NCBI GenBank assembly: GCA_965249725.1
Contig: CBDFMQ010000002.1
Span: 2,304,001 to 2,368,000, forward strand
Source: Longimicrobiales bacterium
Lineage (GTDB): Bacteria; Gemmatimonadota; Gemmatimonadetes; Longimicrobiales; Gaopeijiaceae
Reading direction: 5' to 3'
Length of the DNA: 64,000 nucleotides
Positions 1,829 through 27,045 of the stretch are shown here, piece after piece. The notes below the pieces were generated by a model. It saw only the letters and a program-made list of their open reading frames with translations, made no database searches and was not told the origin of the DNA. Numbering within the stretch: position 1 is the first letter of the stretch; each line of letters opens with the position of its first letter. The translations under genes and the position numbers were made by a program.

Positions 1829-4021
1829 TCAGTTCCTCCCAGTCTGACCAAGGTGTGCCTTCGTCCAGATCACCACGGCTCCGCAACCCCCGGATCCAGC
1901 CAGCCATTCCGGTAGGCCTGCCGCACTAGGATAGACCTCCATCGCCGCGACGCTGAGGGGGCTTAAGGACTCATTCCATGAGCTCGGCCTGCCCGAACCA
2001 CCCACCTGCACCACCACACCATCAACGCTGACGCTTGGTCGACACGACCGTCCCCTGGTAAACAGGTCCCAGCGCCCCGAACCCGCTGGATTGCCTTGGG
2101 TGCCATTCATGCCCCTAAGCAGGTCCCTCGAACTCGGTCGTTCAGGAAGTGCGACCACCCCAGGGATGTCCCTGAACAGATCCTGCAGGGAGGTCAAACC
2201 CGGCTTGGTTTCAAAATCCTGTGGGGTGAGAAAGTGCCCGAATCCCATCCTCTGGCGATCATAGAAGCCGTCGCGAACCAAGGCCAGCGACTGTGCGTCA
2301 ACGACCGCTTCGACCTCATCCAGCAGGAGCGGGTCGACCTGCAGCCGAAGCTCAGCCATGGCGGCTTGCCCCGGCCCCATCACAAACGCATCCGAAACAG
2401 AGGGCTCGTATCCAATGCGTCTTGCTCGAAGGCGGTACGAGCCAACGGTCGGCAGTCGAGCAATAAAGCGTCCATCCCCGTCGGTGACGTATCGGCCTAC
2501 CACCGCATCGCTGGTGTCCAACAGGGTTACTTCAGCCGTCAGGATTGGTACCCCCGATTCGTCTTCGACGACGATGCCTCGGATGGAGTGCGCGGAGGAC
2601 ATTGGGGCACGCCCGGGGGTTGGGGCTGCAACGCCCCCGCCAGACGTCGAGATCAGGCCCAGGGTCGGAGCCGCCGGGCCCAGGGGGGCGACTAGATGAG
2701 GGTAGGACACCAAGGACATCCCGGCGCTTGGCTCAAAGTACTCCGGAAGGGATTCGAGGACGGTTCGGAGTTCATTACCGATCAATGGCACATCATCGGG
2801 AGGGTTAGACACAGGCGATGAGTCGACGAGGTCTAGGCGTGTCATGTCGGGTTGGTCGGCACTAGTCCAGCGCGCTCCTTCGGCCTTCGCGGAAGCGATC
2901 TCGGCGGGAGGAAGAGCCGGAGCAGCGGCCACGGTTCCTACACCGACGCCGAGCCCGATGATGAGCGTCGAGACCCGCCGGCACAAACTCACGCCACCTC
3001 GGTGACGCCCAGGGTCGAGCACAGCCAGCAGGCGCTCGCCCAATTGTGACGGTCGAGCCATCCTGATCGCACCCGGCGTGAAACCCGAAGTCCTCAAGCT
3101 GGTCACCACCTCAAGGAGATCACGCGCGTACTGGGCTGGACTAGAGCCCCCAGCTAAGACGAGGTCGTCGCACGCGTGCTCCCGCTCCATGCGCATGCGG
3201 GATGCCGCGAGCCATACGATCGGATTGAACCAGTGGATCGCACATGCCACCTCGCAGATCAATAGAGCGACGGGGTCTCCGCGCTTAAGGTGGGCCATCT
3301 CGTGAAGCAGGACGTTCCGGAGCCGACTCTTGGTCCAAACCTCGGCCTGAATCGGTAGGAGGACTCGCGGGCGGGCGATCCCCCACGTTAGAGGCATCGG
3401 TGCTTCGTCGCTTACGAGGAGAGTCGGTGCAGATCGTAGACCGAGCTGTCGGGCGACCTCATCACGCAGTTCGATCCAATCACCGCCGCGAACCCTTCGC
3501 GCCCTCCTCCCCAACACACTAACACGTAGTAATCCTGCGACCAGAAAGAGGAGGATCGCGGCTGAGATCAACGCCCAGAGCCCCAATAGGGCGCGCCAGG
3601 GAGACTGCAACCGGCGTGTGGAAGGAGGTCGAACGGCGGGTAGGACCGAGCCGACGTCATTAAGGTTTCGGACCTCACTCAGGTCCGTAGCAGTTGTGGT
3701 CGGGTCGGACGGAGTCGTCTTTGGTGTCTCAACGAACTGCGGAGGCGACAGGCGCGGGTATATCGGAGCCTCAGTTAGGGTCGCGAGCCAACTGGGAAGG
3801 ATCGCCCACGACGGAGCGAAGCGCCCCGCCACCGGGAGCAGCAAGAGGCAACAGAACGACGTGGTCCAAACCATGTGACGAGTTGCGGCACCCGCCGTCC
3901 GAAATAGCAATGTCGTGCACCAGGCAAGCATCATGAGGAAACTGGCTCGGGCAAAGAAGAGGAGTAGGTTCGCCCCTGCCATATCGCGGCCAAGCTCGAA
4001 TAAGAAGTCTGCAGTCATCAT
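1829..4021 (-). CDS. M56 (BlaR1/MecR1-type) peptidase fused to a carboxypeptidase-regulatory-like domain and a TonB-plug-like C-terminal domain
   Basis: N-terminal TM helices; LLHEMAHLKRGD (HExxH); WFNP...EHACDD; later GIVVEDESGVPI...ARRIGY and terminal CGAVVIWTK. Start moved to ATG 4021 because the longer ORF begins inside the IS. Confidence 0.85.
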   Translation of the reverse strand: MMTADFLFELGRDMAGANLLLFFARASFLMMLAWCTTLLFRTAGAATRHMVWTTSFCCLLLLPVAGRFAPSWAILPSWLATLTEAPIYPRLSPPQFVETPKTTPSDPTTTATDLSEVRNLNDVGSVLPAVRPPSTRRLQSPWRALLGLWALISAAILLFLVAGLLRVSVLGRRARRVRGGDWIELRDEVARQLGLRSAPTLLVSDEAPMPLTWGIARPRVLLPIQAEVWTKSRLRNVLLHEMAHLKRGDPVALLICEVACAIHWFNPIVWLAASRMRMEREHACDDLVLAGGSSPAQYARDLLEVVTSLRTSGFTPGAIRMARPSQLGERLLAVLDPGRHRGGVSLCRRVSTLIIGLGVGVGTVAAAPALPPAEIASAKAEGARWTSADQPDMTRLDLVDSSPVSNPPDDVPLIGNELRTVLESLPEYFEPSAGMSLVSYPHLVAPLGPAAPTLGLISTSGGGVAAPTPGRAPMSSAHSIRGIVVEDESGVPILTAEVTLLDTSDAVVGRYVTDGDGRFIARLPTVGSYRLRARRIGYEPSVSDAFVMGPGQAAMAELRLQVDPLLLDEVEAVVDAQSLALVRDGFYDRQRMGFGHFLTPQDFETKPGLTSLQDLFRDIPGVVALPERPSSRDLLRGMNGTQGNPAGSGRWDLFTRGRSCRPSVSVDGVVVQVGGSGRPSSWNESLSPLSVAAMEVYPSAAGLPEWLAGSGGCGAVVIWTKAHLGQTGRN

Positions 4022-4108
4022 GTCTCGCCGCGTTGCCCTCTCTGCCAACTTAGGTGAGACACGGAACGAGTAAAGAATTAGAGTAGGGCGAAGGCAGAGA
4101 AACCGAGG

Positions 4109-4561
4109 ATGCTGAGACACCGAGAGAGAATGGAAGAGAATGGAATCGCCCCACTAACCTGGGAGGGTAAGCGAAGCGCGGCAGCTGCTCCGGACGCGGA
4201 GGTGGTAGATAAGCCGACGCGCCGACGGTTTAGTCCGTCGTACAAGCTGCGGGTCGTCGAAGAAGCGGACCGGTGCACGGAGCCGGGAGAGGTAGGGCGA
4301 CTCCTGCGACGGGAGGGCTTGTACTCGTCGCACCTGACGACATGGCGCAAGGCGGTGCGGAGTGGGTCGCTGAGAGCGCTGTCGAAGAGACGAGGTCGAA
4401 AGCCGAGCGAACGGAATCCGCTGGAGGGGAAAGTGCGCAAGCTGGAGCGCGAGAACACTCGCCTGGAGAAGGAACTCGAGAAGGCGCGCCTGATCCTCGA
4501 CGTCCAGGGAAAAGTTGCAGGGCTGCTGGGATTGAGCCTCAAGGACGGGACGAACTCGTGA
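4109..4561 (+). CDS. IS3-family transposase OrfA (HTH)
   Basis: RRRFSPSYKLRVVEEA...LLRREGLYSSHLTTWR then a coiled coil; start may be ATG 4130. Confidence 0.85.
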   Translation: MLRHRERMEENGIAPLTWEGKRSAAAAPDAEVVDKPTRRRFSPSYKLRVVEEADRCTEPGEVGRLLRREGLYSSHLTTWRKAVRSGSLRALSKRRGRKPSERNPLEGKVRKLERENTRLEKELEKARLILDVQGKVAGLLGLSLKDGTNS

Positions 4562-5565
4562 AGGCGGCCGAGGCGCTGGCCACGTACGTAGGGGTAAAGC
4601 CCGCGTGCGATGCGCTCAGGGTCGCCCGAGCCACGTTCTATCGTCGTCGGAGGCCATCGACCGGGCATCAGCAGCCCCGCCCGACCCCAGCCCGTGCCTT
4701 GAGCGAGAAGGAACGAGACAAGGTCTTCGACACGCTGTGTTCGGAGCGATTCGTGGACCGGTCCCCGGCCGAGGTTGTGGCGACCCTGCTCGACGAAGAC
4801 GTCTACCTGTGCAGCGAACGTACGATGTATCGCGTTCTGGCCTCCCAAGTGCCAGTTCGAGAGCGCCGAGCGCAGCGGAGTCATCCCGAATACCAGAAAC
4901 CCGAGTTGATGGCGACGGGCCCGGGCCAGGTCTGGTCCTGGGATATCACACGGCTGCTGGGGCCGAGGAAGTGGAGCTACTTCTACCTCTACGTTATCAT
5001 GGACATCTTCAGCCGCTACATCGTGGGATGGATGGTGGCGGATCGGGAGAGCTCGGCCTTGGCCGGGCGCCTGATCCAGCAGAGTTGCCTGAAGCATGGC
5101 GTCCAGCCCCAGGTCCTGACCTTGCACTCGGATCGAGGAGCTCCGATGACGAGCCAATGCACGGCTCAGCTCCTCGCCGATCTCGGGGTGACCCGCTCGC
5201 TGAGCCGACCTCAGGTGTCGGATGACAATCCGTTCTCCGAAGCCCAGTTCAAGACCTTGAAGTACCATCCCTCGTTTCCTGGACGGTTCGAGGATCAGGG
5301 CCAGGCCAAAACCTTCTGTCGCTCGTTCTTCCGCTGGTACAACGCCGAGCACCGCCATGGTGGTATCTCGATGCTGACCCCCGAACAGGTCCACTTCGGG
5401 AATGCAGATCAGGTCATCGCCGGCAGGCAGGCCGTGCTACGCGAGGCCTGGGCCGCTCATCCCGACCGCTTCGTCTCCGGTGAGCCGAAGCCCAAACCGC
5501 TCCCGGAGGCCGTCTGGATCAATCCTCCAACCCCCTCCCTCACGACACAGGAGATTGCTCTCTAA
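4558..5565 (+). CDS. IS3-family transposase OrfB (rve/DDE integrase core)
   Basis: WSWDIT, DIFSRYIVGW, LHSDRG, DNPFSEAQFKTLK; GTG overlaps the orfA stop (GTGA). Confidence 0.9.
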   Translation: MKAAEALATYVGVKPACDALRVARATFYRRRRPSTGHQQPRPTPARALSEKERDKVFDTLCSERFVDRSPAEVVATLLDEDVYLCSERTMYRVLASQVPVRERRAQRSHPEYQKPELMATGPGQVWSWDITRLLGPRKWSYFYLYVIMDIFSRYIVGWMVADRESSALAGRLIQQSCLKHGVQPQVLTLHSDRGAPMTSQCTAQLLADLGVTRSLSRPQVSDDNPFSEAQFKTLKYHPSFPGRFEDQGQAKTFCRSFFRWYNAEHRHGGISMLTPEQVHFGNADQVIAGRQAVLREAWAAHPDRFVSGEPKPKPLPEAVWINPPTPSLTTQEIAL

Positions 5566-15678: not shown

Positions 15679-15751
<73 letters not shown>

Positions 15752-16017: not shown

Positions 16018-17205
16018 GTGATCGAGACCGACGACCAAAGGCGAGCTCCAGGTGCCGGTACCCAGGAGACGGCGGTCCAGGACCGATATGCCTCTGCGGC
16101 CCAGGCCCAGGCGCCCGCCCTGTGTTGTCCCGTGGACTACGATCCTCAGTACCTGGAGATCATCCCGGAAGAGGTTATCGAACGGGACTACGGTTGTGGT
16201 GACCCGAGCCGTTACCTCAAGACGGGAGAGACGGTTCTCGACCTGGGCAGCGGTACGGGCAAAATCTGCTTCATCGCGTCGCAGGTCGTTGGAGAGACGG
16301 GCAAGGTCATCGGTGTCGACATGACACCGGAGATGCTCGAGGTGGCCCGCCGAAACGCCCCGGTCGTCGCCGAGCGAACCGGCTACGCCAACGTGGAGTT
16401 TCGACGCGGCCGCATCCAGGATCTGTCGCTCGATCTGGATCTCCTGGAGGAGCGCCTCAGTGATCATCCCGTGTCGACCACTGAAGGTTGGCTAGAGCTC
16501 GAACGGACGACCTCGGATCTTCGGCTCCTGGAGCCGCTGGTTCACGACGAATCGGTGGACGTCGTCGTCTCGAATTGCGTTCTGAACCTCGTCGAGACGG
16601 AGCAGAAGCAGAATCTCTTCCGTGAGATCTACCGTGTCCTCAAGAACGGCGGACGGGCGATCATCTCGGACATCGTCTCGGACGAAGCGGTGCCCGAGGA
16701 GCTCCAGATGGACTCCGAGTTGTGGAGCGGATGTGTTTCGGGAGCCCTCACCGAGGAAGGCTTCCTCGCGGCGTTCGAAGAGGTCGGGTTCCATGGAGTC
16801 CGTGTGCTTGAGCGCCAGGCCGAGCCTTGGCAGACCGTGAACGGGATCGAGTTTCGCTCGGTGACGGTCGAGGCCTTCAAGGGCAAGGAAGGGCCCTGTT
16901 GGGAGCGCGGGCAGGCCGTGATCTATAGAGGCCCGTTCAAAGAAGTACTCGACGACGACGGTCACCGTATGGAGCGCGGTAAGCGCTACGCGGTGTGCGA
17001 CAAGACGTTTCGTATCTACGAACAGGAGCCGTATGGGGAGCTCTTCGACTTCGTGGAGCCTCTCGTGGAGATTCCCCTGGAGGAGGCGGAGCCCTTCGAT
17101 TGCACCCGGACCACGACCCGACATCCCAGGGAGTCCAAGGGCTTGGACTACGATGTGACCACGGACCCTCAGGGAGTGTGCTGTGAACCGGGCGACTGCT
17201 GCTGA
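16018..17205 (+). CDS. arsM: ArsM/AS3MT-like As(III) S-adenosylmethionine methyltransferase
   Basis: GAGGAG RBS with GTG; VLDLGSGTG; Cys motifs ALCCP, YGCG, SNCVLN, WSGCVSGA; C-terminal CC...CC. Confidence 0.75.
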   Translation: MIETDDQRRAPGAGTQETAVQDRYASAAQAQAPALCCPVDYDPQYLEIIPEEVIERDYGCGDPSRYLKTGETVLDLGSGTGKICFIASQVVGETGKVIGVDMTPEMLEVARRNAPVVAERTGYANVEFRRGRIQDLSLDLDLLEERLSDHPVSTTEGWLELERTTSDLRLLEPLVHDESVDVVVSNCVLNLVETEQKQNLFREIYRVLKNGGRAIISDIVSDEAVPEELQMDSELWSGCVSGALTEEGFLAAFEEVGFHGVRVLERQAEPWQTVNGIEFRSVTVEAFKGKEGPCWERGQAVIYRGPFKEVLDDDGHRMERGKRYAVCDKTFRIYEQEPYGELFDFVEPLVEIPLEEAEPFDCTRTTTRHPRESKGLDYDVTTDPQGVCCEPGDCC

Positions 17206-18130
17206 CCCGCCGCCTGGTGGTCGCGTGAGCCCGGGCACGGACGGCGGGGTGACCCCGACTCCGACCGCTAGTGAGTCCCCGGCGGTCGCCCTTCGATCGC
17301 TCGACACGCTGTGGTTCCAGGTGGGTGGTACGCTCTGCAACCTGACGTGCACGCACTGCTTCATCTCCTGCTCGCCTACGAACCACACCCATGAATTCCT
17401 GAGCCTGGAGACTGTCCGATCCTACCTCGACGAGGCGGTGCCGCTGGGTGTGAAGGAGTACTACTTCACGGGTGGAGAGCCCTTCATCAACCGCGATATG
17501 GAGGCCATCCTCGCCGAGACGCTCAAGGTCGGACCGGCCACGGTGCTGACGAACGGCCTACTCCTCGATCGTGACCGATGCGCTCGGTTGGCGAGGCTGG
17601 CCGAGGAGTCCGACTACTCGCTCGACCTTCGCATCTCGCTGGATGGGTACACCGCCGAGACCAACGACCCCATCCGGGGAGAAGGCACGTTCGAGCGGAT
17701 CCTCGACGGAGCACGCCGCGCGGCCGAGGCGGGGCTGAACCCGGTTCTCACCGTGACGGAGGTCCACGAGGGCAACGGGACCGACCAAGGTCGCACGAGG
17801 TTCCTGGAGCTGTTGACCGCGAGAGGGATTACTCCCCCGCGGTTGAAGGTTCTGCCGGTCTTCCAACTCGGTGCCGAAGCCGAGCGCTCGGGCTGCTACG
17901 AGAGTTGGCAGAGGCTCTCGGCAACGGACGCCCCCGAGGACGGATGGGATCACCTGCAATGTTCTTCTTCCCGCATGGTCACCGACCAGGGCGTCTGGGT
18001 GTGTCCGATCCTGGTCAACGAGCCAACAGGGCGCATGGGGGAGCGGCTCGCCGACACCTTTGGCGACTACCCACTCAGCCACCAGGCGTGCTGGACCTGC
18101 CATGTGTACGAGGTCAGCTGCAGGACATGA
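17183..18130 (+). CDS. Radical SAM protein
   Basis: CNLTCTHC, FTGGEPF, VLTNG, ISLDG; extra C-terminal Cys (LQC, VCP, CWTC, SC). Confidence 0.9.
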   Translation: MNRATAADPPPGGRVSPGTDGGVTPTPTASESPAVALRSLDTLWFQVGGTLCNLTCTHCFISCSPTNHTHEFLSLETVRSYLDEAVPLGVKEYYFTGGEPFINRDMEAILAETLKVGPATVLTNGLLLDRDRCARLARLAEESDYSLDLRISLDGYTAETNDPIRGEGTFERILDGARRAAEAGLNPVLTVTEVHEGNGTDQGRTRFLELLTARGITPPRLKVLPVFQLGAEAERSGCYESWQRLSATDAPEDGWDHLQCSSSRMVTDQGVWVCPILVNEPTGRMGERLADTFGDYPLSHQACWTCHVYEVSCRT

Positions 18131-19080
18131 GCAATCGTCACAAGGGCATGGCTACCTGGGGGGAGCGCCTGGTACCCCTCCCGGAGTTCCGAGCGGCGGC
18201 GGCCCAGTCGGGTCGACCTCTCTCCGAGATGGATCGACAGTCTGCGGTCGAGAAGTACTTGAGGCCGTTGAATGATGCGACTCCCGTCGAGGGTCCCTAC
18301 GACCGGATTGCCGTATTCGGAGGCGTCTACAACAACCGGTTCGGCCTCGAGGCCGTTCTCGACGACGCTCGCCGACGCGGGGCGGAGGAGTTGTACTGCC
18401 TTGGAGATCTGGGGGGGTTCGGTCCGAATCCGGAGGCGGTGTGGCCGCTCCTGGAGAGTGCCGGCGTCCGGGGGATCCAGGGGAACTACGAGCAGTCCTT
18501 GGCCTCGGACCGTGGGGACTGCAACTGCGGATACACGGACCCACGGGACAACCACTTTGCGGCTCTCTCGTATGGCTACACCGAGCGTCACTGCTCGTCG
18601 GGATATAGGGAGTACATGGACGGCCTCCCCTCCCGGCGCCGCGTCCGCGTCGGCGATCGGGAATTGCTCCTGGTCCACGGATCTCCGAGACGGGTCAACG
18701 AGTTCCTGTTCTCGTCCACCTCGTCCACGCCGTTCCTTGAGGTGTTGTGCGACGAAAACCGTTGCGACGGGATTCTGTGCACGCACACCGGTCTGCACTG
18801 GCACCGTCGTCTCCCGTCCGGTCGCGACGTGGTCAACGTTGGTGTCATCGGACGGCCGGCCAACGACGGCAAGACCAACGTGTGGTACACGATCATCTCG
18901 GCGACCGACAACGGGATCGACGTCGAATTGGTTCCGCTCGTATACGACCACGAGTCCTTGGCCGCCGAGATGCGCAGAGAAGACCTTCCCGAGGAGTTCG
19001 TCGAGACGATCCTCACCGGATGGTGGACGACGTGCCTGGAGATCCTCCCCGCCAAGGAGCGGGCGGCCTCGCGGTTCTAG
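18127..19080 (+). CDS. Calcineurin-like metallophosphoesterase family protein, Cys-rich
   Basis: LGDLGG, GNYE, VHGSP, THTG; DCNCGY and WWTTCLE; ATGA coupling to the radical SAM gene. Confidence 0.8.
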   Translation: MSNRHKGMATWGERLVPLPEFRAAAAQSGRPLSEMDRQSAVEKYLRPLNDATPVEGPYDRIAVFGGVYNNRFGLEAVLDDARRRGAEELYCLGDLGGFGPNPEAVWPLLESAGVRGIQGNYEQSLASDRGDCNCGYTDPRDNHFAALSYGYTERHCSSGYREYMDGLPSRRRVRVGDRELLLVHGSPRRVNEFLFSSTSSTPFLEVLCDENRCDGILCTHTGLHWHRRLPSGRDVVNVGVIGRPANDGKTNVWYTIISATDNGIDVELVPLVYDHESLAAEMRREDLPEEFVETILTGWWTTCLEILPAKERAASRF

Positions 19081-19091
19081 GGCACACAACG

Positions 19092-20321
19092 ATGACGAAG
19101 CCCCAACCTCGCATCGCTATTGTCGGCGCCGGCCCCGTAGGGCTCGAAGCTGCGCTCGCCGCGGCGGAAGCGGGCTACCCGTTCAATGTGTACGAAGCGG
19201 CACCCGGAGCTGCGGGACATGTCCGCGAATGGGGCCACGTAAGGCTCTTCACTCCCTGGGAACTCAACGTCTCCGCGCGGATGAGGCGGGCTCTCGAACA
19301 AGCCGGCACAGAGGTGCCCGCGGGAGCTGCGTGCCCCTCTGGGACCGAACTGGTGGAGAACGTGCTCGCGCCGGTCAGTGCCCTTCCCTTGTTGGCCGAA
19401 CACATCCACTACGGGGTTCGAGTTCACCGCCTCGGGCGCACCGGACTTCTCAAGCACGAGGAGATCGGCACAGGTCGACGAGCCCAGCACGCCTTCCGAC
19501 TTCTGCTCCGGGACGATTCAGGTCGTGAGTGGACCGAGGAAGCCGATGTGGTTCTCGACTGCAGCGGAAACCCCGAGCCGAACGCTCTGGGCGACGGCGG
19601 CATTCCCGCGCCAGGAGAGGCGCTAGCATCTCAGATCATCAGCCACGACATGCCGGATGTGTCGGATGCCCCAGAGGCTTGGGCCGACCGCACCACGCTA
19701 GTTGTGGGCGGAGGACACTCCGCGACCACGGCCGTGGCGGAGCTCGTCGAGCTCGCCGGCGAACGGACGGGGATCGAGGTCATCTGGGCTCTGCGGGACG
19801 CGACCCCGTCTTCGGATCCTGACGATCCGCTGACCCAACGCGCTGCCCTCTTGGACAAGGCCGCTGAGCTATCCGCCGATCCACCATCCTCCCTCCGCGT
19901 GCTCGTGGGGGTCGTTGTGGACGCCCTGACGCTCCAAGGCGGCGACAACGCGGAATCGGCGACCCCTCATCGAGCCCGGGTCGATCTCCGTCACAAGGAC
20001 GGAACGGTGGAGGCCGTGGAAGCCGACCGTATCTTGGCACTCACCGGGAAGGTCGGGGACCACATGCTCTACCGGCAGCTCCAGGTGCACGAGTGCTGGG
20101 CGACGCAGGGTCCCATGAAGCTCGCTGCGGCACTACTCGCGCAGAGTGGCGATAGCGGTGACTGCCTCGACCAGACCGGTCTCGGTGCGGCGACACTCGT
20201 CAACCCAGAGCCGGGCCTGTTCATTCTGGGAATCAAGTCCTACGGACGACGGAGCGACTTCCTCATGCGGGTAGGTTGGGAGCAGGTGGACGAGGTCTTC
20301 GGATTGCTGGCCGAGGGCTAG
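19092..20321 (+). CDS. FAD/NAD(P)-dependent oxidoreductase (flavin monooxygenase-like, of the type seen in ars clusters)
   Basis: IVGAGPVG, WGHVRLFTPW, VGGGHSA, PEPGLFILGIKSYGR..DFL. Confidence 0.8.
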   Translation: MTKPQPRIAIVGAGPVGLEAALAAAEAGYPFNVYEAAPGAAGHVREWGHVRLFTPWELNVSARMRRALEQAGTEVPAGAACPSGTELVENVLAPVSALPLLAEHIHYGVRVHRLGRTGLLKHEEIGTGRRAQHAFRLLLRDDSGREWTEEADVVLDCSGNPEPNALGDGGIPAPGEALASQIISHDMPDVSDAPEAWADRTTLVVGGGHSATTAVAELVELAGERTGIEVIWALRDATPSSDPDDPLTQRAALLDKAAELSADPPSSLRVLVGVVVDALTLQGGDNAESATPHRARVDLRHKDGTVEAVEADRILALTGKVGDHMLYRQLQVHECWATQGPMKLAAALLAQSGDSGDCLDQTGLGAATLVNPEPGLFILGIKSYGRRSDFLMRVGWEQVDEVFGLLAEG

Positions 20322-20330
20322 TAGCACAAA

Positions 20331-20360
20331 ACGGCCCGCCCCACCAAAGGGACGGGCCGT
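20331..20360. terminator. Hairpin between convergent genes
   Basis: ACGGCCCG...CGGGCCGT preceded by AAAA. Confidence 0.6.
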
Positions 20361-20379: not shown

Positions 20380-23300
20380 TCAGCTTCCCGTCTGGATGAC
20401 CAGTCGAGGGGCGAAGCTGAAGTCGCCCACGGCGCCTGCACCTTCCTTCGAGAAGAACACGATGCTTCCGTCCTTCTGACCGGCCACCTCGAGCACCCAC
20501 CGGGTGCGACCCTTCTTCAGGTCCTTGGTGACGTCGAAGCTCACCGTACCCGTCAGGTCGTTCATGATCTTCACACGATCGGTCCTCTTACCGCGCTTCT
20601 TGGCACCTTGCCATCTGTCCTTCTTGGCGCAGTCGCCCTTGTTGTTCGAGATGTCCTGGTCGGCAGAGCATCGCCACGTGGCGCCCGCATCGGTGCCCCT
20701 GAACTGCTCTGCTTCGGGGCCCGTGTTGATGCCATTGCCCTCGACGAAGTCGCTCTTCAGGTGATGGATGTCCGCTTTGACACCCTTGTTCTTCCAGCCA
20801 GTCGATCCATAGGTGGGATCGATCGTGAAGACGACCTGGGCTCCGGTCACCGTCGAGAAGTCGAGGTCAGCGACATCGAAGGCCACCAATACGTCCTGGT
20901 CCTTCTGAAGCTCCAGGCGTGGGTTGGCACCCTCGTTGGTGTGGCGATTGTCTGGGGCCTGAACCGTCTTCCCCTTCTTGTTGCTCTTTTTGCTCTTGTT
21001 GCTCTTCTTGCTGCCCCCGCTCTTCGCGCTCTTCCCGCTCTTTCCACTCTTCCCGCTCTTCCCGCTCTTGGCGCTCTTGTCGCTCTTTCCGCTCTTGTCC
21101 TTGCGCAGGAAGGTGTCCTTTACGCCGATGTCCACGGGCGGCGGTGGGTCGTCACTCGGCTCGACGAAGGTGTCGAGGCCGTTGAGTCCACCCGTGATGC
21201 TCGCGTCGAGAGTGAGGTTCTGAATGCGCACCTCACCGCTGGACGGGTTGATGCGGTATACCTCTTGGAGGCCGCGCCCACGAGTGGCATAGAACCGCCC
21301 GTCCGGGAGAATGCCCAACCCGTCGAAACCGAAGTCGAGAACCTGCCCATTCAAGCGGAGTTGGACGTGGGCAGACCCCGCCCCGGTCACCGGGTCGATC
21401 TTGAAGATCCGCGGGAACTGATCGTTGCTCTCGATCCCCCAGAGCTGGCCCGTCTCCGGGTCCAAGGAGAGTCCACCGTTGCCGACCACCAGGTTGTCGA
21501 AGGTCCCGAACGTGCCCTTCCGAGCGGCCAAGCCCGTAGCCAGATCGATCTTGACCAAACCACCATCTCTGATCACACGCTCGTTGATGAACTCGCTGCC
21601 CAGCAGCAAGCCGTCGGTGCCGAACTGCAGATCGGACAGATACTGGATGCCCGTGTTGCCGATGTGAGCGGTGATCTGGCCTGTGCCGGAATCCAGCTGG
21701 TACACGTGGGCACACTTGCCCTTGTTCGCTCCGTAGTTCGGCTCACTCGGATCTGGGAAGACCCCGTCGTCACATCCATCGGTCAGGTTCCCGTCCCGGT
21801 ACCGGGCGCTCGCGAACAGCCGTCCGTCCGCCGAAAATGCGAGCCCGGTCCAACCTATGCCCGTCCCACTGCCGCCCCCTGCACCACCGCCGGCCCCGCC
21901 ACTACCGTCACCGCCGCCACCGCCGCCACCGCCGCCACCGCCGACGGTAGCCGTCCCGATGAACGTACCGGTCCCGGCGCCCAGGTCGATCACCAGCAGC
22001 TCGCCGGCATTCGTTACCGCATAGAATTCGCCACCGGCCTGGGCGGGAACACCGCTCGGTACGCTGAAGGTCGCCGCACTCTCACCGACGTCGTCGCCCA
22101 TCTGGAGATTCACCGCGACGGGGGCGCCGATCAGGTTGTTGAGCGTGAGCCCCATCCCTTCTAGATGGAGGGTGCCGCCATCCTCGTCGACGGCCACTAC
22201 CGTGAGGCCGGGTCCTGGCGAGGTGTACTCGAATCCCCCAGCCACTGTGATGAAGGACCCCCCCGGGAGGGTGAAGACGAGGTCGCCCATGTTCATGACG
22301 AAGGCCTCGTTGGGGAGGTCCAGTCCGTTGTTGCCGGCTCCCATCGCGAAGGTCGCGTCCATCACGAAGTCGTCACCGCCCGGATCGCCGGTCGGATCGA
22401 AGTTCACGGTGGCGCTGGTCACCGAAAGCGTCAGGGCCCTCGGAGCCGTTGTTGTTTCGAGCCCGTTGGGGATCCCCTGGAGACCAGCCGGAATCGTGAG
22501 GCTGACCTGCGTCGCCTCACCCGTCGACGGGTTGATCTCGAAGAGCTGGAACGGGGTCCCCCCTCCACCTTGATTCGGTCCGCGGCTAGCGAACATCCGA
22601 CCGTCGGGCATGATCTCGAGCCCGTCGAACCCGTGAACAGCATTCGCACCGCCGATGGTCACCACGATCGCGGGCGAGTTTATGGCTCCCGTACTACCGT
22701 CAATCGTAAACAGCCGCGGTCCCTGCGGTCCGGTGGTGTCCCAGTGGAAGTTGTTCTCGATGCCCCAGATGACACCCGTGTTGGGATCCACGGACAAACC
22801 ACCGTTGATCAGTTCGAAGCCACCGTCGTAAGCGCCCGTCGTACCGGTGCTGAAATAGCCGATGGGGACGGCGGGCGATGTCGGTACTAAGGTGGCGTCG
22901 ACGGCGACGAGCAGCCCTACTGAGTTCTGCACATCGAGCATGCTACCATACACGGTTCCCGGAAGCGGGCCGGGGCCATCGATGTCCGAGACGTTCGCCT
23001 GCCCCACCGACCCTCGATCGGCGGTGACCAGGCCTGTGCTCGGATCGACGTTATAGAGGTGCGTGCAAGCTGCCCCTGAACCGCTCGCCGGGAAGCAACC
23101 GTCGAGACGAGGGTCATCCTTGGTTCGGCTGGTAGTGAAGACCGTCCCCGAGGCGTCCTTGGTGATCCCGGTCCATCCTGGCTTGATTGACGGAGTGCCG
23201 AACGCCTGGGATTGGCCGATCTGCCGGACAGATCCCGCATCGACGTCGATCTCGAGGAGCTTACCGGAATTGGTCGTCGCTAGCAGGACATATGCGTCAC

Positions 23301-23448
23301 CCACTGCGAACGCGGTGCCGTCGAACATCTGATATGGAAGCTCGGCCTTCGCGGGCCGTAGATCGGTCGGTGTCTCAGTTGGGGAGTCGTAACAGCCGGT
23401 GAGGGTCACCGCCGTCAGCGACAACAGAATGAGTCTCTTCACGGTCAT
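20380..23448 (-). CDS. Large lipoprotein: two beta-propeller-like repeat regions, Gly-rich insert, C-terminal DNRLRE-like domain with Lys-Ser-X insert
   Basis: Lipobox LTGC; repeated GWTG/LSVDP.TG.IWGIE/FDGL.I.PDGR blocks; DTFLRK-[KS tract]-NEGANPRLEL. Confidence 0.8.
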   Translation of the reverse strand: MTVKRLILLSLTAVTLTGCYDSPTETPTDLRPAKAELPYQMFDGTAFAVGDAYVLLATTNSGKLLEIDVDAGSVRQIGQSQAFGTPSIKPGWTGITKDASGTVFTTSRTKDDPRLDGCFPASGSGAACTHLYNVDPSTGLVTADRGSVGQANVSDIDGPGPLPGTVYGSMLDVQNSVGLLVAVDATLVPTSPAVPIGYFSTGTTGAYDGGFELINGGLSVDPNTGVIWGIENNFHWDTTGPQGPRLFTIDGSTGAINSPAIVVTIGGANAVHGFDGLEIMPDGRMFASRGPNQGGGGTPFQLFEINPSTGEATQVSLTIPAGLQGIPNGLETTTAPRALTLSVTSATVNFDPTGDPGGDDFVMDATFAMGAGNNGLDLPNEAFVMNMGDLVFTLPGGSFITVAGGFEYTSPGPGLTVVAVDEDGGTLHLEGMGLTLNNLIGAPVAVNLQMGDDVGESAATFSVPSGVPAQAGGEFYAVTNAGELLVIDLGAGTGTFIGTATVGGGGGGGGGGGDGSGGAGGGAGGGSGTGIGWTGLAFSADGRLFASARYRDGNLTDGCDDGVFPDPSEPNYGANKGKCAHVYQLDSGTGQITAHIGNTGIQYLSDLQFGTDGLLLGSEFINERVIRDGGLVKIDLATGLAARKGTFGTFDNLVVGNGGLSLDPETGQLWGIESNDQFPRIFKIDPVTGAGSAHVQLRLNGQVLDFGFDGLGILPDGRFYATRGRGLQEVYRINPSSGEVRIQNLTLDASITGGLNGLDTFVEPSDDPPPPVDIGVKDTFLRKDKSGKSDKSAKSGKSGKSGKSGKSAKSGGSKKSNKSKKSNKKGKTVQAPDNRHTNEGANPRLELQKDQDVLVAFDVADLDFSTVTGAQVVFTIDPTYGSTGWKNKGVKADIHHLKSDFVEGNGINTGPEAEQFRGTDAGATWRCSADQDISNNKGDCAKKDRWQGAKKRGKRTDRVKIMNDLTGTVSFDVTKDLKKGRTRWVLEVAGQKDGSIVFFSKEGAGAVGDFSFAPRLVIQTGS

Positions 23449-25421: not shown

Positions 25422-25557
25422 CCAATCGGTGCCCTAGACGGCGCAAAACCCCAGGCAAATGACCCGGGAGTCTGCCTCTACTCCCCTCACAGTCGGCCCG
25501 AACCCAGATAGCGCGCCCCATGGACCGACCCTCGAAGAAAGCTCCAGGAGACATCAG

Positions 25558-27045
25558 ATGCTCCGAAAGCAGACTCTCTTAGTCGTGACGCTCGTACTGG
25601 CATTGACCCCGCTCGGTTGCGAGCTGTCCCTCACGGCTCCCGACATCGTGCCTGATCTACCCGACGCCAGAGACGCCAAGGACGCGTTGGCCATCGAGCA
25701 GATGGCACCTCTGGCGGCCGCCACAGTGCAGGGTCCGACCTGCGTAGCACCGGGATCGGCCATCTCGTGGTGGCCGGGGGAGGACACATACGACGACGTA
25801 GCCGGCACGAACCCGATCGTTCGCAATAGCGGCGTCGTGTTCGAGCCCGGCGTGGTGGGCCAGGGGTTCCGGTTCAACCAGGGCCTCGGTCAGCCGTTCC
25901 TGGAGATCGACGACTCGCCTAGCCTGCGGCCCGCGACCTTCACGATCGACTTCTGGGCGCAGCGTCTCAGCGCAGGCCAGAACAACGATGCGTTCGGCAA
26001 CATTCTCGTCGAGAAGGCGATCGATGATGCCAGCCTAGCCGGACTCGGGCTGTCGTACTTCGTCTCGTGGACCCAGGACGACCGAATCCAGGCGGGGGTG
26101 TTCTTCGAGGACGACGTTGCCGTCGACGTGCGGCTGGTCGGAACCTCGGTCCACCCGTTCGGCTCGGTCGTCCACATCGCCCTCTCGTTCGACGGCACGA
26201 CGGCGACGCTTTACGTGAACGGCACCGCAGAGGACACGTACGACGCCTCCGGGCGTCCGCCGGTGGCCTACGGTGCAGGGTCACTCGTGGTCGGAGCGAC
26301 CTACCTGGCCGCACGTAACGCGGGCTTCCCCAGATCACCCGACGGCATCGTCGACGAGTTGGAGATCTTCAACTTAGCGCTGGCGGCGCAGCAGATCCTG
26401 GACATCTACCAGACGAGCGGCGCGTGCAAGGTCGCGACGGAGCCCGAGCCGGAGCCCGAGCCTGAACCCGAGCCCGAGCCAGAGCCTGAACCCGAGCCCC
26501 CCTCGGACCTCGAGGTCGACGTAGACATCAAGCCGGGGCGCGACCGTAACGTGATCCGGGTCAAGTTCCCTCGGAAGTGGGGACACGACAAGAGCGCTAA
26601 GAGCGGCAAGAGTGATAAGAGCGGCAAGAGCGGCAAGAGTGATAAGAGCAGCAAGAGCGAGAAGAGCGTCCGCGGTCGCTGGCCCGGGCTCAATGTCACC
26701 GCAGCACTGCTCAGCAGCGACGGGTTCGACGCAGCAGGCGTAGACGTGGGGACCATCACACTGGGCGACGAAGTCGATCTCGACGTGGGCGTGACCATCA
26801 AGCCACGCAAGAAATGGCGCCGGAAGAAGAAGGACGATCGGCCGCCTCGCTTCCACGCGTCCCTCCGGGACGTGGACCGCGACGGCGATCGTGACCTGAT
26901 CGTACACTTCGGCCTGAACGCTCTGGTCCGCACCGGCGACCTGACCCCCGAAACGACGCAGCTCTGCCTCAATGGCGTGACGTCAGAGGGGGCTCAATTC
27001 CGTGGGTGTGACGAGGTCATCGTGAAGGCCAAGAGGCGGCGGTAG
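25558..27045 (+). CDS. Lipoprotein: LamG/concanavalin-like domain, (EP)n linker, DIKPG domain with Lys-Ser-X insert
   Basis: AGGAG RBS; lipobox PLGC; SWWPGE...FTIDFW...HIALSFDG...LYVNG...GIVDELEIFN.AL. Confidence 0.85.
   Translation: MLRKQTLLVVTLVLALTPLGCELSLTAPDIVPDLPDARDAKDALAIEQMAPLAAATVQGPTCVAPGSAISWWPGEDTYDDVAGTNPIVRNSGVVFEPGVVGQGFRFNQGLGQPFLEIDDSPSLRPATFTIDFWAQRLSAGQNNDAFGNILVEKAIDDASLAGLGLSYFVSWTQDDRIQAGVFFEDDVAVDVRLVGTSVHPFGSVVHIALSFDGTTATLYVNGTAEDTYDASGRPPVAYGAGSLVVGATYLAARNAGFPRSPDGIVDELEIFNLALAAQQILDIYQTSGACKVATEPEPEPEPEPEPEPEPEPEPPSDLEVDVDIKPGRDRNVIRVKFPRKWGHDKSAKSGKSDKSGKSGKSDKSSKSEKSVRGRWPGLNVTAALLSSDGFDAAGVDVGTITLGDEVDLDVGVTIKPRKKWRRKKKDDRPPRFHASLRDVDRDGDRDLIVHFGLNALVRTGDLTPETTQLCLNGVTSEGAQFRGCDEVIVKAKRRR

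Follow-up and report, generated by a model that had tools for sequence, protein, structure and literature searches.

We analyzed a 64,000-nt stretch of a Longimicrobiales (phylum Gemmatimonadota) genome (the window; the host genome, G000, is 95.8% complete), in which four genes on the plus strand between positions 16018 and 20321 encode an ArsM-type methyltransferase, a radical S-adenosylmethionine (SAM) protein that we call X, a metallophosphoesterase-like protein (MPE) and a flavoprotein. These four genes are a real, widely conserved arsenic-handling unit, and the module is probably the sign of a route to arsenic-containing sugars that has gone unnoticed in bacteria. On balance, we favor the reading that X fills the slot of the radical SAM enzyme ArsS and makes a 5'-arsenic-adenosine, probably DDMAA (5'-deoxy-5'-dimethylarsinoyl-adenosine), with its partners supplying and balancing trivalent arsenic. 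The gene content, its conservation, the fusions, the family placement of X and a complementary distribution relative to ArsS were observed; from these we infer all of the catalytic steps and the product.

A conserved cluster of four genes

Linkage was counted at close loci, the best 80 of 424 stretches encoding relatives of X. MPE accompanies X at all 80, the flavoprotein at 67 and ArsM at 36; all four genes occur at 34, and 19 of these complete loci keep the same tight gene order. Where the flanks are full (46 loci), the figures are 46 for MPE, 42 for the flavoprotein, and 22 each for ArsM and the complete set. This linkage is far beyond chance. Among 41 longer homologs of X, 24 are fusions to ArsM (22 in one order, two in the other), 14 join the flavoprotein to X and two join X to MPE, tying all three partners to X beyond neighborhood. 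The remaining one is a probable frameshift artifact, and the fusions P0130, P0151 and P0160 contain frameshift-like stretches too. A preliminary description of the window had proposed an arsenic-linked operon and named neighborhood conservation of the four genes as a check; synteny and fusions together strongly bear out a conserved module. A DUF2064-type gene lies nearby in 28 of the 80 loci, and a PstSCAB-like importer is inserted within the operon in 13. At about 49 of them a type III polyketide synthase cluster stands divergently beside the module, an arrangement seen in many Thermoanaerobaculia loci (e.g. L049, L026 and L174); we take it as a lineage neighbor and not as part of the pathway. 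One genome (G007; L124 and L125) has two near-identical copies of X, one accompanied by its MPE; the second copy has no MPE and sits amid transposase-like and conjugation-like genes.

The first gene (16018-17205, 395 aa) begins with a GTG after an AGGAGAG site. Judged by residues and relatives, its product is a long, AS3MT-like ArsM-type As(III) SAM methyltransferase. Cysteine had been reported at all four ArsM/AS3MT-type positions, and it is there: C36-C37, C60 (YGCG), C187 (SNCV) and C239 (GCVSG) are each Cys in 34/34 aligned close homologs, and the C-terminus carries CC..CC. The closest solved relatives are the arsenic methyltransferases 4kw7, 8xt7 and 5evj (E 1e-31 to 1e-35), with which the YGCG, SNC and xC motifs align; the N-terminal CC falls outside the printed structure alignment. 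An insertion of about 35 residues splits the match to the curated ArsM models, and the protein scores under all of their cut-offs: 364 bits on the best NCBIfam model, NF040538 (methyl_ArsM; cut-off 500), 213 on NF008823 (PRK11873; 263) and 139 on NF038099 (AsSugarArsM; 400).

The third gene (18127-19080, 317 aa) encodes MPE, which carries PF12850 (Pfam). The canonical dimetal calcineurin-like ligand set (DxH, GDxxxxG, GN, HG, GHxH) is incomplete in it: DxH has become GxY (65-68) and GHxH has become THTG (219-222), with D94, N120, H184 and H220 retained. GxY for DxH and Gly for the last His of GHxH recur in all aligned X-linked MPEs. A CxC at C132/C134 is invariant in 79/79 aligned sequences, and an added WWTTC (299-303) contributes the invariant C303. 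In this fold, the three lost residues serve as ligands for one metal of the pair; MPE is therefore expected to be a one-metal protein with three cysteines rather than a phosphoesterase. The preliminary description had called it a hydrolase, an assignment we rejected on the loss of metal ligands; with three ligands replaced and a Car1-type CxC kept, it is probably not one.

C132/C134 align with C74/C76 of the MPEs in L192, L147 and L151, and MPEs of ars operons have their CxC at 74/76 or 75/77. The window MPE is 30-36% identical to MPEs whose genes adjoin arsM and arsR within ordinary ars operons, including 32% to that of an arsR-arsN2-arsM-MPE-acr3 operon (CxC at 74/76). The arsenate reductase Car1 of Rufibacter tibetensis was reportedly described by Shen et al. 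in 2024. According to the accessible portion of one report, Car1 is an As(V) reductase in which Cys74 and Cys76 are essential (PMC12124457). MPE looks like a remodeled relative of this type of enzyme: it has the metallophosphoesterase fold and a CxC at the position equal to 74/76, a comparison made through a Hymenobacteraceae ars-operon homolog and not the Car1 sequence. Unlike the ars-operon MPEs, which retain DxH and GHTH, it swaps three ligands and adds WWTTC. An ATPase role for the metallophosphoesterases of ars clusters is, in the accessible part of its source, a modeling suggestion (PMC9807832).

The last gene (19092-20321, 409 aa) encodes a flavoprotein of the FAD/NAD(P)H type with a KSYGR tail. 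An Ensifer plasmid has, between arsR and arsK, a gene whose product matches it along the full length at 33% identity (E 5e-52). A Rhizobium homolog has the same arsR/arsK context, and a weaker one in G241 lies in a marR-arsN1-FAD-MFS cluster. The ArsO model gives only 16.5 bits, and the search for solved structures found no sequence relative. The Ensifer and Rhizobium genes are probably arsV, judged by their context and not by a named sequence. In the accessible text of one report, the ArsV flavin monooxygenase oxidizes monomethyl-As(III) (MAs(III)), and contexts of the arsR/marR-flavoprotein-arsK type match those described for arsV (10.1101/2021.08.12.456183). By homology and gene context, then, the window protein looks like an ArsV-type enzyme, sharing with the flavoproteins of arsR-FAD-arsK clusters the KSYGR tail as well as the full-length identity. 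It differs from ArsV in being shorter, in having no Cys-rich tail and in having no regulator or ArsK adjoining, and the X-linked form is fused to X in 14 long homologs. The flavin oxidoreductase of the preliminary description is therefore a flavoprotein as stated, but in place of the tailoring role suggested for it we find a likeness to the ArsV-type enzymes of ars operons.

Family placement and genome distribution of X

X (17225-18130) has 301 aa, as does the identical database protein P0001, and carries PF04055 (Pfam). The cysteine motifs quoted in the preliminary description are present, with C38/C42/C45 (CxxxCxxC, 38-45) followed by C246, C260, C289, C292 and C299 at the C-terminus, and each cluster and tail cysteine is kept in 79/79 or 80/80 close homologs. 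X reaches no NCBIfam cut-off. Its best model is the Rv1681 family (NF049973) at 107.6 bits, far below the cut-off of 380, with a best E of 4.9e-34 among 39 family members; ArsS (TIGR04167) gives 52.7 bits against a cut-off of 300, and no ArsL model is among the 23 families matching X at E<=1e-9. We considered X as an Rv1681-type protein or a SPASM peptide maturase and rejected both, since it lies under all cut-offs. The suspicion that X is neither canonical ArsS nor ArsL is upheld by hidden Markov model (HMM) scores and motifs.

A global profile alignment of X with twelve ArsS proteins runs over the full length (probability 98.8, 22% identity), and the five C-terminal cysteines of X pair with ArsS cysteines in both MAFFT and global hhalign alignments; the isolated tails align at E 0.18, which is not significant. 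The X and ArsM-ArsS systems are alike in pairing ArsM with a radical SAM protein of about 300 aa that has a five-Cys tail, and in having TIGR04283, TIGR04282/DUF2064, DUF547, VTT and MerA-like reductase accessories in the genome or cluster. They are unlike in that X has GGEP/LTN at the positions where ArsS has GGAP/RCN, travels with a remodeled MPE and an ArsV-type flavoprotein, largely excludes ArsS and has many carriers without ArsM. Since X fails two tested features that define ArsS, the HMM cut-off and the DUF3641 domain, it is not a member of ArsS even though its system would work in an ArsM-ArsS-like way.

The ArsL-ArsM pathway for arsinothricin is likewise a pairing of radical SAM protein and ArsM, and the arsinothricin-type model NF040538 is the one on which the window ArsM scores best. 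ArsL, in the accessible part of its description, has its cluster motif at about residues 209-216 and a C-terminal CCxxC (RCCLKC) arsenic site (10.64898/2026.04.29.721666). X, by contrast, has its motif at 38-45 and lacks a CC pair, and thus the C-terminal CCxxC. The Rv1681 family (found with Rv1680 and Rv1679) gives X its top HMM score, and in G167 such a cluster stands beside TIGR04282 and TIGR04283, but the Rv1681-type protein has other partners and no five-Cys tail. An AlphaFold model of X (predicted local distance difference test 88) has a radical SAM partial barrel with generic SPASM/twitch-type matches. Fold searches with X and ArsS models returned generic radical SAM matches only, with the same top two (SkfB and BlsE) and no ArsS structure, and an ESM Atlas search gave generic names only.

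The family is large. Of 8,000 scored candidates similar in length, at least 6,857 match at E<=1e-30, and 327 clusters formed at 50% identity match the family profile at that same threshold. The closest named relatives come from Longimicrobiales genomes (83-88% identity), followed by many from Thermoanaerobaculia. A literature search, with subscription journals mostly outside its reach, found no paper on the X family; any sequence-network figures in the primary ArsS, ArsV and Car1 papers may include it.

To place X among genomes we used a fixed set of 201 genomes for the host phylum (X at E<1e-70, ArsS over its cut-off, TIGR04283 at E<=1e-40) and 166 genomes for Acidobacteriota (X family at E<1e-60); G212 and G279 count as one row each, with no conclusion altered. 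In the host phylum, X is found in 29 genomes, ArsS in 18 and weaker relatives of X in 15. The weaker relatives match at 1e-23 to 1e-30, with a clear gap to X, and comprise 12 radical SAM-ArsM fusions of about 830 aa (Y-type), one distant full-length relative, one Rv1681-type protein and one from G212. No genome has two of these three groups. TIGR04283 is present in 62 of the 201 genomes (59 over cut-off) and in 29/29 X genomes. One of the three radical SAM groups is present in 59 of the 62 TIGR04283 genomes, against 3 of the 139 others; one of three exceptions, G128, has a Y-type fusion below threshold. The Acidobacteriota counts are 27 for the X family, 36 for ArsS and 59 for TIGR04283. There, 25 of the 27 X genomes have TIGR04283, and X occurs together with ArsS in four genomes, versus 10.6 expected among TIGR04283 genomes; 11 ArsS genomes have no TIGR04283 match and nine TIGR04283 genomes have none of the groups.

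Genes for TIGR04283, TIGR04282, a VTT protein and a MerA-like reductase directly surround X and MPE in G099 and G183 (TIGR04282 was checked in clusters and in G000 only). A profile search found no ArsS in G000. Outside the window, that genome has a locus (C3:570560-574764; L104) with a TIGR04283-DUF2064 fusion (570560-571852), a VTT-DUF547 fusion and a MerA-like reductase; the reductase is split over two frames (574126-574764 and 573356-574189), which may reflect a frameshift or a fault in the assembly.

Relatives of X turned up in other settings as well. Y-type fusions in L136, L137, L140, L141 and L188 (G233, G066, G197, G128 and G275) have no five-Cys tail and stand beside TIGR04283/TIGR04282, sometimes with a PHO4 transporter. 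They appear to fill the ArsS slot too (12 of 201 genomes and G128). G167, a genome without ArsS or X, has an Rv1681/Rv1680/Rv1679-type cassette (L139:5386-9967) whose flanking TIGR04282 and TIGR04283 genes tie this uncharacterized cassette to the same system. On a plasmid of the cultured Roseomonas haemaphysalidis 546 (NZ_CP061178), a distant member of the X family occurs with a Phn-type importer, a GGxY-type MPE and TIGR04282, in a cluster where no arsM is seen. In that locus (L166:5547-10949) the X-family gene is overlapped by a gene for a 459-aa radical SAM protein (best model TrsS, 100/490 bits), and the PhnDE-type importer and the GGxY MPE come after the overlapping pair.

Proposed role and competing explanations

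We propose an arsenosugar-type pathway that this operon opens by activating arsenic, with X taking over the task of ArsS. MPE would reduce As(V) species, ArsM would methylate arsenic, and X would add a 5'-deoxyadenosyl radical to dimethyl-As(III) to give DDMAA. The flavoprotein may oxidize stray or product-bound trivalent arsenic, and TIGR04283 and TIGR04282 would act downstream. Carriers without ArsM would take up and reduce methylated arsenic. Conversion of dimethyl-As(III) to DDMAA is the chemistry given for ArsS in the accessible portions of two sources (PMC13598754; 10.64898/2026.04.29.721666). The preliminary description had suggested a different As-C product. The genome profile argues that X takes the position of ArsS, which makes it likelier that a new family of enzymes forms a known or closely related product than that the product belongs to a new class; a different product is nonetheless conceivable because many X genomes lack ArsM.

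Those genomes were identified by counting ArsM as present if there was a match to NF008823 at E<=1e-45 or a close long ArsM. NF008823 matches occur in 157 of the 201 host-phylum genomes but in only 10 of the 29 with X; one further X genome has a close long ArsM. At E<=1e-4, the window ArsM finds nothing in five single-contig X genomes. The 18 genomes without ArsM belong to four genera, and 15 keep MPE and the flavoprotein; the other three (G122, G129 and G178) have neither. Close MPEs occur in 20 of the 201 genomes, all with X, and the flavoprotein in 21, of which 18 have X. As ArsM, MPE and the flavoprotein all vary, TIGR04283 is the fixed partner of X, and the operon neighbors are variable suppliers. 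The carriers without ArsM point to a salvage route, or to an unmethylated product or new arsenic metabolite. G000 itself has a second, short ArsM (NF008823 over cut-off) with a MarR carrying a CC motif directly upstream (C1:138135-139514); the two form a detoxification pair of their own, and the pair is similar to the MarR(ars) subfamily.

Several observations weigh against X in the place of ArsS. An NF008823 match and a close ArsM are both missing from 18 of the 29 X genomes, and in four single-contig X genomes the ArsM model gives, at a loose threshold, generic methyltransferase scores or nothing (G000 control, 4e-94). The identity between X and ArsS is only 22-26%, nine other radical SAM models outscore ArsS on X, and X has no DUF3641 (PF12345) match at E<=0.01, with an ArsS control at 181.7 bits. 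We take the five-Cys spacing to equal a truncated SPASM-type motif as well, so it is not specific for likeness to ArsS. The grouping of X and ArsS as sisters is unstable, with a Shimodaira-Hasegawa-like approximate likelihood ratio of 90 in a quick 51-row tree and recovery in 24% of the bootstrap trees when 26 rows were analyzed with care. ArsS sits on a long branch in the trees, and the approximately unbiased test on the 26-row tree (p 0.02) carries no information, since the outgroup still contained a Y-like row. Exclusion of ArsS by X is incomplete, both being present in G299, G339, G373 and G385. The X contig of G299 (L172, C3) is a probable contaminant of an Acidobacteriota bin and runs collinear, at 67-90% nucleotide identity, with L126 and L135, two loci from Longimicrobiales; in G373 and G385, X lies within the full four-gene operon and ArsS has no ars neighbors. 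The genomes are also kin (the X genomes come from ten genera), so that counts and nominal p-values overstate independence. The NCBI arsenosugar names of TIGR04283 and TIGR04282 may themselves rest on gene context, and a single linear flux does not sit easily with an oxidase next to a reductase.

A possible, if clearly weaker, alternative keeps X in the same slot with other chemistry. X would adenosylate inorganic As(III) or MAs(III), or add another SAM-derived radical to it, with the arsenic held on its own cysteines or passed on by MPE; ArsM, where present, would methylate afterwards, the flavoprotein would oxidize the arsine to As(V), and genomes without ArsM would make an unmethylated or monomethyl arsenoribose, undescribed from this route. 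The 18 X genomes lacking ArsM, 15 of them retaining MPE and the flavoprotein, fit this, as do the constant adjacency of MPE with its extra invariant Cys303 and the best score of the window ArsM on the arsinothricin ArsM model. Arsinothricin ArsM acts after formation of the C-As bond, according to the accessible part of that work (10.64898/2026.04.29.721666). However, the same long ArsM clade also adjoins a true ArsS (G124), X has no C-terminal CCxxC of the kind that binds As(III) in ArsL, and the ArsM-less genomes come from four genera only and could import and reduce environmental dimethylarsinate, still making DDMAA. We hold equally tentatively the idea that X is a large second family of C-As-forming radical SAM enzymes working without ArsM, together with a remodeled Car1-type reductase. 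Such an X might salvage environmental methylarsenates or might place an adenosyl radical on inorganic As(III), with TIGR04283 and TIGR04282 elaborating the resulting unmethylated 5'-arsono-adenosine or arsenoribose.

It is unlikely that the module transforms or detoxifies organoarsenicals with X forming no new As-C bond, for instance by modifying or degrading an imported compound. Three of the four genes do have relatives in ordinary ars detoxification operons, importers are often adjacent, and G000 has no recognizable Acr3, ArsP or ArsH. Yet no ArsR/MarR or efflux gene recurs among the listed neighbor families of the 80 close loci, G000 keeps its separate marR-arsM pair, and detoxification predicts neither the complementarity with ArsS nor the dependence on TIGR04283. 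Still less probable is an X-MPE-TIGR04283 core acting on phosphorus or another oxyanion, e.g. in C-P bond formation, with ArsM as an occasional passenger. The Pst- and Phn-type importers in the clusters, the phosphoesterase fold and the three genomes without ArsM, MPE or flavoprotein would suit it, but 24 of the 41 long homologs are X-ArsM fusions, in both orders and with the ArsM cysteines kept, both MPE and the flavoprotein derive from ars-operon families, and phosphate transporters also take up arsenate.

In the accessible part of the literature reached, the characterized C-As-forming radical SAM enzymes are ArsS and ArsL; if X does the job of ArsS, it would be a third. Surveys that count ArsS would then overlook over half of the host phylum's potential arsenosugar makers and about 40% of those in Acidobacteriota, which bears on where the arsenosugars and arsenolipids of soils and seawater originate. 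If X works without ArsM, arsenosugar-type biosynthesis would be far wider than ArsS counts suggest, undescribed compounds included, with a host-phylum tally of 29 X genomes and 15 with other relatives against 18 with ArsS. The complementary distribution also suggests a likely role for the one-metal MPE and for a biosynthetic ArsV-type flavoprotein, both of them orphan families, and ties the uncharacterized TIGR04283 and TIGR04282 proteins to whichever radical SAM enzyme is present. New here are the two-phylum profile with controls, the carriers without ArsM and the residue-level link to Car1.

Genomic setting of the operon

The four co-oriented genes of the preliminary description are all present as open reading frames (ORFs) on the plus strand. 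It gave the junctions as overlaps or an 11-bp gap. The X and MPE genes do overlap (ATGA), and the 11-bp gap precedes the flavoprotein gene; the first junction is instead a 19-bp gap with the start at 17225, and the methyltransferase and X genes overlap only if the upstream GTG at 17183 serves as the X start. A GC-rich hairpin, given earlier as the end of the operon, does lie at 20331-20360 between the operon and a convergent gene (-24.3 kcal/mol, z -3.5; 2/200 shuffles equally good), but its T-run is on the minus strand and so suits the convergent gene better. The terminator scan left this hairpin unflagged, a promoter scan of the operon gave no match, and a sequencing-run search turned up no RNA holder among those listed. 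There are zero matches to arsR, arsC, acr3, arsB or arsH within the window, as the preliminary description had said. The G000 matches to HTH_5, LMWPc and ArsC and two weak ones to the ArsB family are all outside it, and Acr3/SBF, ArsP and ArsH were not found in this 95.8% complete genome.

The operon has a GC content of 64.5% (genome, 64.1%), and its composition has no sign of recent transfer. Divergent from it lies a tRNA-Lys(TTT) gene (15679-15751, minus strand, found with ARAGORN), which is not part of the pathway and is a possible integration landmark; tRNA-Lys is upstream in L001-L005 too and absent in five other loci scanned. In the X tree, the subgroup of the window X nests among Thermoanaerobaculia, and most Longimicrobiales carry another subgroup. 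This suggests an old transfer of the window subgroup next to tRNA-Lys.

Around the X cluster of G099, three ORF pairs are each interrupted by a single in-frame TGA (L129:655-1152, 2142-2639 and 3370-4077) and are possible selenoproteins; by eye, we take them to be AhpD-like, OsmC-like and GrdB-like. A membrane protein in L129 and L130 has no Pfam or NCBIfam match at the thresholds used, and its assignment as a sodium:solute symporter was dropped on that ground. Within the window, large secreted-looking proteins are encoded at 20380-23448 (minus strand), at 25459-27045 (plus strand) and in between, and have in common a 'KSDKSGKSGK' stretch of low complexity, with C-terminal domains that are also similar. 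Two adjacent ORFs at 4130-5562 (plus strand) look by eye like an IS3-family transposase pair.

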